Assembly (NCBI GenBank): GCA_003482855.1
Contig: DMXO01000005.1
Coordinates: 99,719-163,718 of the forward strand
DNA: 64,000 nt
Reading direction: 5' to 3'
DNA from: Candidatus Magasanikiibacteriota bacterium
GTDB taxonomy: Bacteria > Patescibacteriota > Patescibacteriia > Magasanikbacterales > UBA922
The notes beneath the pieces are model-generated. The model had not been told where the DNA came from. It worked only from the letters and a program-made list of their open reading frames with translations, and did no database searches. Made by a program: the position numbers and the translations under genes. Of this stretch, positions 57,680-61,346 are shown one piece after another (positions within the stretch are counted from its first letter, which is position 1; every line of letters starts with the position of its first letter).

Positions 57680-58633
57680 TCATTTATCATTTTGTACCGC
57701 TTCAATCAACATCTGTGCAATTTTCCCATTCCACTGCTTGTATGTTGCTTCGTATGCAAACAATAAGCCTGGGCGAGAGTTTAGTTCGAGAAGTTTGAAA
57801 CCTTCTTTTGTATTCATGAAGTCTGCAGAGTAGAGGAGCGGTCGATATTTGTCTACTTTTGGTTGAATATCGTGGCAAATTATATTTACTACGTCTTTTG
57901 GTATATCTGAAACTTGTACAGTAAAAGAATCACCGCCTTGGGAAACATTTGCCAAGAAGCTTCCTTTTTTGGGCATACGCATGAGGGAGTGAGCTATTTC
58001 CCCATTGATTACCTCGACTCGCAGATCATGATTTCCTTGTACCAGATTGTGGATACCGCACGTTGCATCGAGAAATTCTTGGAGTAAGACATCGTGCCAA
58101 TCATCGTACGTGTGTTCACTCACTTCGCCGGCATTGATAATAAAAATTCCACGTCCTTCAGTGAGATAATTTTTTTTGAGCACAACGCGATCACCATTGC
58201 CAATAGCATATTCCTTCATCTTGCCAATGAATTCTTCATATGAATTGATTAGGTCTGTGCGCGGGGAGATTTCTTCGAATGTCTGAGCTGTGAGATGTTT
58301 ATCAAGAGCAAGCTCGTCAAAATCAGGATGGTTGATCACTTTACAATCATAAATTTTTGGGATTGTATTTTTGTCATCACGATTAAAAATCAAATCTGCC
58401 TTTATTTTATTTTTGTATTCTTTAAGTTCGCCATTATCAAAATACCATCCGTGAGAGAAAACTCCATTCCCCTCGTATGAATTTTTTCCTCGGACAAAGT
58501 AAACGTCGATGGGGTACTTCGTTATGTCAGAGATTACATCCTGGTATCTATCAAAGTATTCACCTTCGTTGAAAGGATAACCCATTGGCTCTGGGTCGGA
58601 GAAGTAAATTGTGATTGTTTTTCTTCTATTCAT
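57680..58633 (-). CDS. ATP-grasp domain protein (RimK/GshB-like)
   Basis: RVVLKKNYLTEGRGIFIINAGE and FKLLELNSRPGLLFAYE are ATP-grasp B/C-domain motifs. The substrate is unknown. Confidence 0.5.
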   Translation of the reverse strand: MNRRKTITIYFSDPEPMGYPFNEGEYFDRYQDVISDITKYPIDVYFVRGKNSYEGNGVFSHGWYFDNGELKEYKNKIKADLIFNRDDKNTIPKIYDCKVINHPDFDELALDKHLTAQTFEEISPRTDLINSYEEFIGKMKEYAIGNGDRVVLKKNYLTEGRGIFIINAGEVSEHTYDDWHDVLLQEFLDATCGIHNLVQGNHDLRVEVINGEIAHSLMRMPKKGSFLANVSQGGDSFTVQVSDIPKDVVNIICHDIQPKVDKYRPLLYSADFMNTKEGFKLLELNSRPGLLFAYEATYKQWNGKIAQMLIEAVQNDK

Positions 58634-58713: not shown

Positions 58714-60003
58714 ATGTTTATATTTGATTCAAAAAAATTTCCAGATAGTCCGGGTATTTATCTATTTTATAATGATAAAAGAGAGCTTATTTATGTTGGA
58801 AAAGCTACGTCTTTGAAAGATAGAGTTGCGTCGTATTTTCGCAACCCCCTCCCAACCTCCCCCTTAAAAATGGGGAGGCGTCCGATTGAGTTGCTTATAA
58901 ATGAAGTATCAGATGTCAAAATAATACAAACTGAATCAGTGTTGGAAGCGATTATTTTGGAAGCTAATACTATTAAGAAATTTCAACCAAAATATAATGT
59001 AGATTTGAAAGATGACAAGTCGTGGAATTATATCGTCATGACTAAAGAAAATTATCCACAAGTAAAAACTGTTCGCCAACATGAAATAGAAAATTCGAAA
59101 TTCGATCCTCGATTTAATCGGGGACGAAATTTGAAATTTAAATTTGGTCCTTATCCAGGGTTAAAAACACGTGAAATGATGAAACTGTTGCAGAGGTTGT
59201 TTTTTATTTCGCACTGTAAGCCTTGCCAGCCTGGTAAGCCTTGTAGGCCTTGTTTGTACTATGCAATGGAACAATGCTTAGGCGTATGTACCGGAGAAAT
59301 TACGTCACAAGAGTATAAAAAGAAAGTTATTCGTCCCTTAGTTATGTTTTTGAGAGGAAACAAAAAAGGCGTTATACGACAACTTGGAAAACAAATGAAA
59401 GAAGAGAGTAAGAAGGAAAATTTTGAAGAAGCTGGTCGTTTGCGAAATCAAATCAGCGCTTTGCAGAGAATACAGGATATAGCATTGTTGAATAAGTCAT
59501 TTACTAGTCAACAAAAATTCGAAATTCGAAATTCGAAATTCGAATTTTCAAGAATAGAAGGTTATGATATTTCAAATTTGGGTGAGGCGGGCAAAGTAGG
59601 ATCCATGGTAGTGTTTGAAAATAGCGAGTCGAACAAATCACAATATAGAAAATTTAAAATCAAAAATGTTCTTGGTCAAAGTGATGTTGGATGTCTTCAT
59701 GAGGTGTTGGAACGCAGATTAAAACATAGTGAGTGGAGAATGCCGAATGTTATTTTGGTAGATGGGGGAGTACCACAGGTCAATAGAACAGTGGAAACTA
59801 TTCGAGTAAATAAATTTAAAATACCAGTCGTTGGCATTGCCAAAGGACCCAAACGTAAGAAGAATGAATTTATTTTAGGGAGCAAAGAAAAAGAATTTGT
59901 GAAGTGGGTAAACAAAAATCAAGAATTGTTGGTTCGTGTGAGGGACGAAGCCCATCGGTTTGCTATCAGCTATCAGAGGAAGTTGCGCAAAATCAAACAC
60001 TAA
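58714..60003 (+). CDS. uvrC: excinuclease ABC subunit C, short form lacking the C-terminal (HhH)2 domain
   Basis: GIY-YIG domain (PGIYLFYNDKRELIYVGKATSLKDR, YNV), UvrBC region, RIEGYDISN, and a C-terminal RDEAHRFAISYQRK. It contains heptamer repeats (aaattcg)x4 and a CCTCCCC/GGGGAGG palindrome insertion. Confidence 0.85.
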   Translation: MFIFDSKKFPDSPGIYLFYNDKRELIYVGKATSLKDRVASYFRNPLPTSPLKMGRRPIELLINEVSDVKIIQTESVLEAIILEANTIKKFQPKYNVDLKDDKSWNYIVMTKENYPQVKTVRQHEIENSKFDPRFNRGRNLKFKFGPYPGLKTREMMKLLQRLFFISHCKPCQPGKPCRPCLYYAMEQCLGVCTGEITSQEYKKKVIRPLVMFLRGNKKGVIRQLGKQMKEESKKENFEEAGRLRNQISALQRIQDIALLNKSFTSQQKFEIRNSKFEFSRIEGYDISNLGEAGKVGSMVVFENSESNKSQYRKFKIKNVLGQSDVGCLHEVLERRLKHSEWRMPNVILVDGGVPQVNRTVETIRVNKFKIPVVGIAKGPKRKKNEFILGSKEKEFVKWVNKNQELLVRVRDEAHRFAISYQRKLRKIKH

Positions 60004-60027
60004 TCTCAACATTAATTTACATCAATA

Positions 60028-60056
60028 AAAAATCGCGTAAATGACGCGGTTTTTTT
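60028..60056 (+). terminator. rho-independent terminator after uvrC
   Basis: AAATCGCGT-aaatg-ACGCGGTTT followed by TTTTT. Confidence 0.75.
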
Positions 60057-60282
60057 ATATTCCACTAAATATTTTATTAAATATGTAATGGAACGGAGGC
60101 GAACGATGGACGTCTACCTCGATGTGTGATGGATCTCCGGTCCATCGTTTCCCTCCATCCCTCCCTTGTGGGAAAAAGAACGTGCGACCCTGCATCGCCT
60201 CATGTCAACCGCCACAGTCGTCGTGGCGATCAGGGTCTTCTTGTCAGGTCACCAGACCGGCTGATCGGGAACTCGGAGTTCC

Positions 60283-60606
60283 CTACGCGACCGGGTCGAT
60301 CCCCTTGGACTCGGGCGCTTCTTCGGCCAGCGGGGCCTCGGGCTCGGGCGCGGCGTCGGCTTCGGTGCCCTCGGCGGTGGGCTCGAGGACCTCGGTCGCG
60401 GTGGGCGCGGGGCAGCCCTGTCCACAGCCGCAGTCGGCTTCTTCGGCCAGCGGGGCCTCGGCTTCGGCGGCCTCGGTGACGCGGAAGTCCACAGGGAGCT
60501 CCCCGTGGTCGCGCAGGAACTGCTCGCAGGCCTTGTTGAGCTCTTCTTCAGGCATGACGCCCATGACGACCTTGGCGAAAATCGTGAGGAACTGAGTCTC
60601 GTTCAT
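60283..60606 (-). CDS. small acidic Cys-containing protein encoded in a high-GC island (107 aa from MNETQFLTIFAKVV...)
   Basis: AAGAGGT sits 3 nt upstream of the ATG. The codon third positions are almost all G/C, unlike every other gene here. It has internal EAPLAEEA direct repeats flanking DCGCGQGC. A GGGAACTC-c-GAGTTCCC hairpin follows the stop. Confidence 0.4.
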   Translation of the reverse strand: MNETQFLTIFAKVVMGVMPEEELNKACEQFLRDHGELPVDFRVTEAAEAEAPLAEEADCGCGQGCPAPTATEVLEPTAEGTEADAAPEPEAPLAEEAPESKGIDPVA

Positions 60607-60820
60607 GATACCTCTTTGGTAGGTGTGGCAGTTGACTACCTTAGAGAAACTACATGGTCTTGCGCGTTTTGTCAATTTTTTAATTTACATTTTGTTTTTT
60701 GAACAGATATGTGGATAACATGGGTTTTCATGGTTGCAAAGAATAGTAAAGTGGGATATAATGGATGTACGTGGGGAAGAGTGGGGAAAATGCTTGTCTC
60801 TCTACTTTCTAAATACAATT

Positions 60821-61252
60821 ATGTTCATCGGAGAATATTCCCACAATTTAGATGAAAAAGGTCGTCTTGCGGTCCCCAAAAAGTTCCGCGCTGATCTTTC
60901 CAAAGGTGCAGTTGTAACAAGGGGACTCGACAACTGTCTTTTTCTTTATACGAAAACAGAATGGAAAAAGCTTGCTGATAAGCTCGCGACGTTGCCATTC
61001 TCACAAGCAAATACACGTGCGTTTGCGCGTCTCATGCTCGCAGGAGCTATGGATGTCTTGGTAGATAAACAAGGTAGAATCATGGTCCCTGATTATCTAC
61101 GCAGTTTTGCTGGTCTCAAAAAAGGAGTTGTCGTGGCAGGTCTATACAACCGTCTCGAACTTTGGGATCAGGAAAAGTGGGAAGAATACAAGACAAAGAC
61201 TGAGAAAGAGAGTAATACGATTGCAGAGCAGATGTTTGAACTCGGTGTTTAA
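60821..61252 (+). CDS. mraZ: transcriptional regulator MraZ
   Basis: MFIGEYSHNLDEKGRLAVPKKFR, the canonical MraZ start. Two repeated half-domains. The track ORF begins upstream at 60734. Confidence 0.85.
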   Translation: MFIGEYSHNLDEKGRLAVPKKFRADLSKGAVVTRGLDNCLFLYTKTEWKKLADKLATLPFSQANTRAFARLMLAGAMDVLVDKQGRIMVPDYLRSFAGLKKGVVVAGLYNRLELWDQEKWEEYKTKTEKESNTIAEQMFELGV

Positions 61253-61265
61253 TTCCTTAAAAGAA

Positions 61266-61346
61266 TTATCATGTATCATTTATCATGTATCATGTATTGG
61301 TTCACTTGGTAGCAAATAAATGATATATGATAAATGTACATGATAT
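61266..61346. repeat. intergenic inverted repeat made of (ATCATKT)n heptamer units
   Basis: atcatgt atcattt atcatgt atcatgt ... aaatgatatatgataaatgtacatgatat, between mraZ and rsmH. Confidence 0.55.

Follow-up and report, generated by a model that had tools for sequence, protein, structure and literature searches.

A GC-rich unit between uvrC and mraZ of Magasanikbacteria: a putative old resident with conserved RNA structure and a diverging small open reading frame

Dual-function RNAs are exemplified by Staphylococcus aureus RNAIII, which encodes hld, and by SgrS/SgrT, and type I toxins are short hydrophobic membrane peptides, usually of under 60 amino acids (aa). GC-biased accelerated regions, such as mouse Fxy at the pseudoautosomal boundary and the GC-rich vls of Borrelia, have been ascribed to biased gene conversion; we know of no description of bacterial biased gene conversion of such strength. 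SulA, YneA, ChiZ, and SidA are small nonhomologous damage-inducible division inhibitors that are encoded in a conserved slot beside repair or division genes. Composition outliers are routinely read as recent horizontal gene transfer (HGT), and horizontally acquired genes are said to follow the amelioration model of Lawrence and Ochman. Here, we analyzed a stretch of 64,000 nucleotides (nt) from a Candidatus Magasanikiibacteriota bacterium (contig DMXO01000005.1, positions 99,719 to 163,718; referred to as the window), in which a GC-rich island with a small minus-strand open reading frame (ORF) lies between uvrC and mraZ. The GC content at third codon positions (GC3) of this ORF is 0.87 in a host with a GC3 of 0.33, and the island nevertheless appears to be an old resident.

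The finding is real and unusual. GC content is conserved in the island while protein sequence is not, and untranslated RNA structure is its best-conserved part. The best explanation, judged from the sequences compared, is a family of units that is specific to Magasanikbacteria, has members in the window and at two further loci (L071 and L012), and is probably as old as the divergence of these organisms. We give roughly even odds (a probability of about 0.5) to the reading that the unit consists of a conserved RNA scaffold and a fast-diverging translated ORF, with GC content held at ~70%, and yields a stable RNA that is gated or has a dual function.

Composition, ORF, and transcription signals of the island

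The presence of a GC-rich island between uvrC (58714 to 60003) and mraZ (60821 to 61252), as described in an initial annotation made from the sequence alone, was confirmed by windowed GC content and by Pfam matches on both flanks. GC content peaked at 0.76 in 200-nt windows and at 0.727 in 300-nt windows, ~7 standard deviations above the background of the 64 kb (mean, 0.388; standard deviation, 0.047), and was ~73% between 60090 and 60606; the second-highest 300-nt window in the 64 kb had a GC content of 0.53. The edges of the island were sharp (≤ ~50 nt) and matched the limits of the transcription unit described below, and no GC gradient was seen in the adjoining 3' end of uvrC or in mraZ.

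A chimeric assembly or high-GC contamination, a concern of the initial annotation, would account for the compositional jump, the only observation in its favor. The ORF was found, in every case between mraZ and uvrC, on at least 14 contigs, the longest of 617 kb, that belong to ENA, JGI, and Logan assemblies of separate groundwater samples; the protein as called by gene finders on these contigs starts at Met15. The 721 nt across both junctions were the same in 9 of 9 fetched loci, except for one single-nucleotide polymorphism and one run of N's, and the sole polymorphism within the island among the fetched contigs was 60127 T/C (L004 and L009), in the apical part of the long hairpin described below. 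Since identical junctions were present in at least 14 contigs that were assembled independently, from different samples and with different assemblers, the island is not a chimera. With homologous units also found at the same site in two other species, the probability of an artifact is negligible.

The ORF (107 codons plus TAG; 60283 to 60606, minus strand), its translation, and the Shine-Dalgarno (SD) sequence AAGAGGT (60610 to 60616, minus strand) 3 nt ahead of the ATG were exactly as initially annotated, and equally placed SD sequences were present in L071 (GGGGGA) and L012 (GGAGGG). The assignment of the coding frame to the minus strand was upheld by the SD sequence and ATG, by the order GC3 > GC1 > GC2 (GC1, GC2, and GC3 of 0.75, 0.47, and 0.87, respectively), and by in-frame strain-level indels in the L071 homologue. 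Codon usage was indeed unlike that of all other genes in the window: GC3 of the other 54 ORFs of ≥100 aa ranged from 0.25 to 0.43 (0.29 for dnaK), and the codon adaptation index relative to host genes was 0.41 for the island ORF versus 0.63 to 0.77 for host genes. The plus-strand ORFs in the island, which had been dismissed as compositional artifacts, do look artifactual, that is, like antisense artifacts of GC-rich DNA, with GC2 above GC1 and Ser-rich products; in the ORF at 60122 to 60595, GC2 was far above GC1.

The product of the minus-strand ORF is acidic (pI 4.05; 23% Asp plus Glu) and has no segment long enough to span a membrane. AlphaFold2 predicted helices at residues 3 to 17 and 20 to 34, followed by a disordered tail rich in Ala, Glu, and Pro, which holds two copies of EAPLAEEA and the motif DCGCGQGC. 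In the N-terminal 43 residues, the fraction of Gly, Ala, Arg, and Pro (GARP) was 0.19 and that of Phe, Tyr, Met, Ile, Asn, and Lys (FYMINK) was 0.28, similar to the host values (0.22 and 0.30) despite a GC3 of 0.86; in the tail, these fractions were 0.47 and 0.03, respectively. A direct repeat reported to be 24 nt long is present within the coding sequence but measures 31 nt; its copies on the minus strand (60317 to 60347, encoding the second EAPLAEEA, and 60437 to 60467, encoding the first) were 94% identical and lie 120 nt apart and in frame. A GC-rich hairpin reported to be perfect follows directly after the TAG stop (60266 to 60282, minus strand; GGGAACTC-c-GAGTTCCC); the palindrome was found as described, but a 1-nt loop is sterically impossible, so that in effect the stem has 6 bp. 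On the best reading of these sequences, the ORF would be translated but loosely constrained, with respect to length, acidity, and a disordered tail rich in Ala, Glu, and Pro.

The island appears to form one minus-strand unit, from ~60675 to 60026, that would extend from a sigma-70-type promoter to a terminator shared with uvrC and would comprise, in this order, a ~40-nt leader with a 12-nt motif, the SD sequence and ATG, the 107-codon ORF, and a ~225-nt 3' untranslated region (3' UTR) with GC-rich hairpins. The putative promoter (60647 to 60675, minus strand), with TTGACA (60675 to 60670), a 17-nt spacer, and TAGTTT (60652 to 60647), was aligned with TTGACA-17-TAGTGT of both L071 and L012, giving TTGACA-17-TAGT(G/T)T for the family. 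It was not called by a consensus scanner because its −10 element fits the consensus at just 3 of 6 positions. The same kind of scan called no plus-strand promoter inside the unit, no dedicated search for antisense RNAs having been made. The predicted terminator (60026 to 60057) is intrinsic and bidirectional, with an A-tract, a CGCG-loop-CGCG stem, and a T-tract, and would serve uvrC on the plus strand and the island transcript on the minus strand; a terminator scan placed the minus-strand site at 60048 to 60034. This layout recurred in L071 and L012 with compensatory changes in the stem. The promoter, the hairpin at 60090 to 60161, the 12-nt inverted motif around the ORF, and an 11-nt direct repeat around the unit (see below) are additions to the initial annotation.

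Homologous units and conserved RNA structure

Relatives were sampled at 80 loci around uvrC (L010 to L089; ~4 kb covered on each side), together with the loci of close MraZ homologues. Units homologous to that of the window were present at the uvrC|mraZ site of L071 and L012, whose UvrC proteins are 64% and 69% identical, respectively, to that of the window. The order of elements in both matched that of the window (terminator, AU-rich hairpin, GC-rich hairpin, motif, ORF, SD sequence, leader, promoter). The GC-rich hairpin of L071 and L012, of ~75 nt, reads GGAACGGAG...CATCGTYTCCCYCCAT on the plus strand, and these units carry the motif GTCAACCGCCA, with GTCAAC(C/T)GCCA in the leader on the other strand. 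All three ORFs of the family are on the minus strand and have 104 to 113 codons, a GC3 of 0.86 to 0.88, and the order GC3 > GC1 > GC2. Their proteins were not significantly alike in sequence (BLASTP E = 1.6); they are alike in length, in pI (4.05 to 4.13), in a GARP-rich and FYMINK-poor composition, in a recurring EAP motif, and in ending in small residues, ...(V/A)A, followed by TAG. In L092 and L093, strains of the L071 species, the tail differs from that of L071 by the same in-frame 51-nt indel. A covariance model that was built from L071 and L012 only matched the window at 60021 to 60171 (minus strand) with 99.6 bits (E = 5e-21), and the next match in the 64 kb scored ≤24 bits. Covariance models detected no further strong member in ~100 loci, and when metagenomes were scanned with the hairpin motif, all hits but one chance match were L071-type contigs.

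The long GC-rich hairpin in the 3' UTR (60084 to 60172, minus strand; core arms at 60090 to 60111 and 60140 to 60161) was detected as an inverted repeat and in the consensus fold and carries GGAGGG on its 5' arm and CCUCC on its 3' arm. On the minus strand, the consensus fold reached −34.2 kcal/mol with 27 pairs, of which 4 were compensatory and several were G·U; on the plus strand, it reached −24.9 kcal/mol, and many A·C breaks arose. Because the G·U pairs are legal on the minus strand only, the hairpin is best placed in an RNA from the ORF strand, in the 3' UTR. Within the hairpin (60090 to 60161, minus strand), GGAGGG, a 5-nt spacer, and AUG open an ORF of 22 codons, which was rejected as a peptide gene since L071 and L012 do not share its frame; it probably reflects RNA structure. 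The SD-like and anti-SD-like arms may matter for ribosome binding. An AU-rich hairpin, H3 (60059 to 60094, minus strand), separates the GC-rich hairpin from the terminator; it was predicted by the RNAalifold consensus of the window, L071, and L012 as well as by single-sequence minimum free energy (MFE) folds. In H3, 4 of 15 pairs keep pairing through two-sided changes, and in the AU-rich hairpin and terminator together, 9 of 28 pairs are altered on both sides yet still paired.

The leader (5' UTR) contains the motif GUCAACUGCCAC (60625 to 60636, minus strand), which is the complement of a 3' motif that reads GUGGCGGUUGAC in the minus-strand RNA (60204 to 60215). The two motifs are complementary over 11 to 13 bp in the window, L071, and L012, with 11 core pairs intact, and two one-sided differences between the genomes are transitions that give G·U on the minus strand. 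A helix closed by these motifs was present in the MFE and centroid folds of L071 and L012, and the whole window transcript folded with z = −4.25 versus shuffles. GTCAACCGCCAC occurs in the window just at 60204 to 60215 (plus strand) and 60625 to 60636 (minus strand), with no further match above chance.

Taken as DNA, the same motifs are 12-bp inverted repeats (GTCAACCGCCAC at 60204, plus strand, and GTCAACTGCCAC at 60625, minus strand) and might be invertase sites for phase variation of the ORF or ends like those of a miniature inverted-repeat transposable element, in keeping with the fact that they flank the ORF and not the promoter and that they are conserved in three genomes. However, the at least 14 contigs all have one orientation, no recombinase gene lies nearby, conserved elements reach past the repeat on both sides, the unit is single copy, and both mismatches in the repeat give G·U on the transcribed strand. 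A role as DNA sites is thus very improbable.

The conservation of RNA elements with compensatory changes, while the ORF is not conserved, raises an alternative in which the locus makes mainly a regulatory or dual-function RNA divergent from the mraZ operon and the ORF is secondary or a translated spacer. The same contrast in the islands of L025 and L029 (see below) favors this alternative, as does a ~350-nt structured RNA candidate (MFE z = −8.4 versus shuffles) upstream of mraZ in L099, which has a perfect promoter and in which no long ORF was convincing. On the other hand, three-base periodicity, the conserved SD sequence and ATG, ORF length, acidity, and in-frame indels point to translation under some constraint. 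In addition, CCUCC is in a stem and not in a loop, no Rfam family matched, no target was found, and the motif had no other above-chance match in the window. We consider this alternative unlikely and favor the combination of a conserved RNA scaffold with a translated ORF.

The RNA candidate in L099 (2430 to 2780, minus strand; also L100, 1160 to 1510) deserves mention in its own right. It occupies the slot upstream of mraZ at a locus where a beta-CASP gene replaces uvrC, and its elements include a TTGACA-17-TATAAT promoter, a long GGAG...CUCC hairpin, and a bidirectional terminator; it had no Rfam match. Compared with the window unit, it gave a weak model match (37 bits), and its leader does not align.

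Age, distribution, and maintenance of GC content

Two origins had been offered in the initial annotation, recent acquisition from a high-GC donor and an unusual locally maintained element. The second fits the evidence, and the first was not sustained: no donor homologue was found, units at the same site in L071 and L012 all have a GC3 of ~0.87, and the composition of the N-terminal residues is host-like. Among the three hosts, nucleotide identity was 64 to 73% in the best-conserved parts of the island, no closer than the 71 to 77% of mraZ, and 58 to 62% in the 3' end of uvrC. With the divergence of the unit on a par with that of the genomes, recent transfer among these hosts or from a common recent source is disfavored. 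Synonymous sites are saturated at this depth, and an import under host mutation pressure should fall to a GC3 of ~0.33. Since all three members have a GC3 of 0.86 to 0.88 despite saturation, their GC richness appears to be maintained.

Presence at the same site in all relatives, which had been named as an argument against recent HGT, was observed in part, with the island carried by some relatives but not by the nearest ones. UvrC assigned the window to Candidatus Magasanikbacteria (Candidate Phyla Radiation [CPR]/Patescibacteria), and the best species representative by UvrC was L010 (69 to 71% identical). The uvrC|mraZ spacer was empty (~200 to 300 nt) in L010, L013/L101, L016, L023, L019, L022, and L096/L098 and held a GC-rich unit in the window, L012, L071, L025, L029, L018, L073, L021, and L033. 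At filled sites with a clear ORF, the ORF was always divergent from mraZ and had a strong SD sequence. A GC hairpin without a U-tract followed right after the stop codon in all island ORFs examined (L071, L012, L025, L029, L021, and L073).

This patchy distribution, with the nearest relatives lacking the unit, would be expected of a laterally moving cassette, with the uvrC|mraZ slot being refilled by recombination either from an unsampled high-GC source or by circulation among Magasanikbacteria. Within one genus (UvrC identity, 83 to 88%), the slot is empty in L019 and L022 and filled in L025 and L029, and different GC3-rich ORFs occupy the same slot in L025/L029, L033 (ClpP-like), L021, and L073. 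An 11-nt exact direct repeat, TTAATTTACAT, which may be a chance match, brackets the terminator and island (60012 to 60022 and 60680 to 60690). Its right copy is followed by 'ttttgttttttgaa' (60691 to 60705). At the empty site of L010, the uvrC terminator has a matching T-tail, and 'ttttgttttttgaa' would be a relic of an older terminator into which the unit was inserted. The post-stop GC hairpins without a U-tract resemble those at gene ends of high-GC bacteria, and the window organism and the L071 species co-occur in one aquifer project. Against a cassette stand the lack of a donor homologue for the window or L071 ORF and the lack of a Pfam match for 9 of 10 other island ORFs tested. Moreover, no integrase or transposase was present within ~10 kb of the island and no tRNA within 49 kb, and the neighbors are housekeeping genes. 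The AT-rich promoter, leader, and terminator of the unit are of host type and have been retained in all three hosts, and the conserved parts are no more alike between hosts than core genes are. Finally, the N-terminal domain and a further GC3-rich family (L020; see below) have an amino acid composition of the low-GC type. Overall, we find a mobile cassette doubtful, although lateral spread of the unit within the lineage is a serious rival to vertical descent of the family.

Other GC3-rich ORFs were found around uvrC. The islands of L025 and L029 encode secreted orphan proteins (158 or 206 aa); UvrC of the two is 87% identical, and their ORFs, with a GC3 of 0.90 in both, are 37% identical with many indels. 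An almost unchanged 3' hairpin, GGAGGGGGCGACGA...TCGTCGCCCCCTTC (L025, 5404 to 5459; L029, 4583 to 4654; minus strand), lies beside the uvrC terminator in both. It is reminiscent of the GGAGGG/CCUCC hairpin of the window, with weak covariance-model scores (E = 1.5 to 2.7). The −10 elements of these islands are TAGTAT/TAGTGT behind TTGACG, with a 17-nt spacer counted in L025. A small-protein family directly upstream of uvrC (L020, 3509 to 3829; L027, 3477 to 3851; L053, 3519 to 3845) had host-like GC1 (~0.43 to 0.51) and GC2 (0.36 to 0.40), with a GC3 of 0.87 to 0.95. The L020 protein was 35 to 38% identical to those of L027 and L053 (BLASTP), 31 of 38 shared residues used the same codon, and the family had no match in any library. 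In all, GC3-rich ORFs near uvrC fell into at least 15 unrelated families, several of which have signal peptides or lipoboxes.

Among the 80 loci, GC-island nucleotides made up 4 to 8% of the sequence up to 1 kb away from uvrC on both sides versus 0 to 1.4% beyond 2 kb, an ~10-fold enrichment that is raw, with kinship and the position of intergenic space not accounted for, and that we treat as an observation rather than a result. Such an enrichment on both sides of uvrC would suit an explanation in which the island is a by-product of biased gene conversion at a uvrC/mraZ recombination hotspot, with no function at the RNA level and with the protein pushed toward GARP residues. Fast divergence of the ORF does coincide with a GC3 of ~0.9 and with GARP enrichment (most marked in the tail, as given above), and no specific structure was found within the ORFs. 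However, the sharp edges (~50 nt) coincide with the transcription unit, and no gradient extends into the 3' end of uvrC or into mraZ; the 64 kb hold no second copy or silent cassette of the island as a conversion partner, the long hairpin included; AT-rich elements within the unit are preserved; and a heteroduplex between such diverged alleles is hard to picture. As an explanation without any role for the RNA, gene conversion is distinctly unlikely.

As a driver of GC content within the favored reading, conversion has to be weighed differently. The sharp edges at the transcription unit and the lack of a conversion partner favor selection on the RNA as the GC-raising force, and the fast GARP-ward change of the protein and the hotspot around uvrC fit biased conversion. 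In the favored reading, the promoter, the leader motif and its 3' complement, the long hairpin, the AU-rich hairpin, and the terminator would form an RNA scaffold under purifying selection, and GC-favoring fixation would keep a weakly constrained translated ORF at ~70% GC, either through RNA selection (for stability, structure, resistance to AU-directed RNases, or gating by rare codons) or through biased gene conversion. The leader motif would pair with its 3' complement and close the coding region into a GC-rich domain. The 3' hairpins may shield the 3' end, which would give a long-lived RNA that is translationally gated or has a dual function. The product, a predicted helical hairpin with a disordered acidic tail, may act as a small binding or regulatory protein, and its placement divergent from mraZ may reflect a tie to the division cluster.

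Several points weigh against this reading. The nearest informative relatives lack the unit (L096/L098, MraZ 92% identical; L101, 89%; L010, UvrC 71%), so that vertical descent needs several losses and lateral spread in the lineage may have occurred, and only three species carry it. The closing helix is absent from the window's own MFE fold, and covariation support for it is weak because the core is almost invariant (two G·U pairs and no double change). Shuffling of synonymous codons in the three family ORFs revealed no extra structure (z = −0.02 to +1.1), so that only bulk GC content, and not a specific fold, could be selected there. The transcript ends, translation, and 5'-3' helix are all features that we infer from sequence, and the force that holds GC3 may be either RNA selection or biased conversion.

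A wider proposal, which we put forward as speculative and consider doubtful, is that small "GC3-locked" genes form a class of their own in Magasanikbacteria. Most would be orphans, several would encode secreted proteins or lipoproteins, and they would be concentrated on both sides of uvrC and upstream of mraZ. Third positions of these genes would have stayed at ~0.9 GC for a very long time in genomes of ~38% GC while their proteins evolved fast, the cause would be a locus-restricted GC-favoring process new to bacteria, and the island would be one member, distinguished by a conserved RNA scaffold that closes on itself. Candidate causes of such a class would be codon-based translational gating, protection from AU-directed RNases, and strong local biased conversion.

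With respect to the flanks of the island, phased repeats resembling MraZ boxes (GTGGA, TGGGT, TGGTT, GTGGG...) with a spacing of ~10 nt lie at 60711 to 60790 and overlap the mraZ promoter TTGCAA-17-TATAAT (60734 to 60762). All relatives inspected had such an array ahead of mraZ; in the window, its first repeat, TGTGGATAA, also resembles a DnaA box. In L095, which has the closest MraZ (97%), 3.5 tandem copies of a 35-nt palindromic unit lie just upstream of the mraZ boxes (1 to 130), at a contig end with low coverage, and may be an assembly artifact. In relatives with an MraZ identity of 87 to 89% (L099, L102, L103, and L104), genes for CorA, a 224-aa protein, and a beta-CASP protein directly precede mraZ. 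The same three genes are found in the window at 45.9 to 49.1 kb, parted from mraZ by an 11.7-kb block of uvrB, uvrA, uvrC, and the island. UvrC of the window has just 429 aa, with GIY-YIG, UVR, and RNase H-like domains, and is equally long in relatives; Pfam detected no C-terminal helix-hairpin-helix domain in it. The island of L029 is flanked by a 15-nt repeat with 1 mismatch, comparable to the repeat that brackets the unit in the window.

Comparison with known systems

The island unit belongs to no described RNA or protein family. In word-indexed and exhaustive searches of 5.8 billion clusters and 1.84 billion representatives, the only homologue of the 107-aa product was the protein itself, two other matches (P0002 and P0003) being rejected as tandem-repeat junk, and the L071 ORF was equally orphan in the database of 5.8 billion clusters. 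Pfam, NCBIfam, PHROGs, PADLOC, and PDB sequences gave no match to the product, tblastn against phages and plasmids gave none, and the hairpin motif was absent from viral contigs. Rfam 15 returned nothing above 22 bits in 59500 to 61300 at E values up to 10 and no gathering-level match in nine related loci. Full-text literature searches turned up no account of GC-rich islands or of GC3 outliers in Magasanikbacteria or the CPR. If the maintenance of GC content is real, the island would show plainly that, in a streamlined CPR genome, a single bacterial locus can be subject to GC-biased fixation or to selection on its RNA, and it would call for caution with composition-based HGT calls in CPR lineages. 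The cluster of GC3-rich orphan ORFs at uvrC/mraZ offers a defined site for studying the turnover of orphan genes in uncultured organisms.

Three other candidate identities were rejected. For integron attC sites, the GTCAAC/GTTGAC motifs lie 410 to 430 nt apart, flank the ORF rather than hairpin ends, and fit the RYYYAAC and GTTRRRY core-site consensus in part; for an integron cassette, the ORF has its own conserved promoter and the G·U pattern of the hairpin points to RNA, and no integron integrase or cassette array was present within ~6 kb on either side. A precursor of a graspetide-type ribosomally synthesized and posttranslationally modified peptide, or poly-Glu tailing, by the ATP-grasp gene at 57680 to 58633 was not borne out by co-occurrence: within ~4 kb on each side of uvrC, an ATP-grasp homologue was found only in L010, which lacks the island, and in neither L071 nor L012. 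A type I toxin-antitoxin system was discarded as the product is not a small hydrophobic peptide (107 aa, pI 4.05, no membrane span).

If the predicted helix between leader and 3' region forms, the island unit would resemble hok/sok and the AapA/IsoA mRNAs of Helicobacter, in which a small ORF lies within such a conserved long-range pairing on a very stable structured mRNA. Unlike in those systems, its 107-aa product is acidic and largely disordered, and the helix does not obviously occlude the SD sequence. With SulA, YneA, ChiZ, and SidA, the island shares a short, fast-evolving, lineage-specific ORF that lies between uvrC and mraZ and is divergently oriented, a link that is positional only. 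It differs in that its product lacks a transmembrane or LysM segment, and no LexA-type box was seen in the island promoter by eye, a formal scan not having been made.

The island resembles an HGT islet or ORFan in its sharp GC jump, atypical codons, orphan product, and patchy presence in an intergenic slot between core genes. The island differs in being without a donor or mobility genes and in having same-site homologues in deeply diverged hosts that hold a GC3 of ~0.87, whereas a transferred gene should ameliorate. It also differs in that its host-type promoter, leader, and terminator are conserved in the unit and its N-terminal domain has a composition of the low-GC type. As in Fxy and vls, GC3 is sharply and locally raised to ~0.9, with rapid amino acid change toward GC-rich codons against an AT-rich or ordinary background; unlike in those regions, there is no recombination partner or silent cassette in the 64 kb, and the edges match the transcription unit.

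Like RNAIII and SgrS, the island unit would yield a structured RNA of several hundred nucleotides with a small ORF, predicted 5'-3' pairing, and several 3' hairpins, and like RNAIII, it would be transcribed divergently from a regulatory operon (agr in the case of RNAIII and mraZ here). It differs from both in its much longer ORF (107 codons), in having CCUCC in a stem and not in loops, in showing no sequence or Rfam kinship with them, and in an extreme GC content without counterpart among them. Conservation of structure independently of the ORF, by which dual-function RNAs are judged, was found in the island family in consensus folds, in the covariance model, and in the nucleotide identities.

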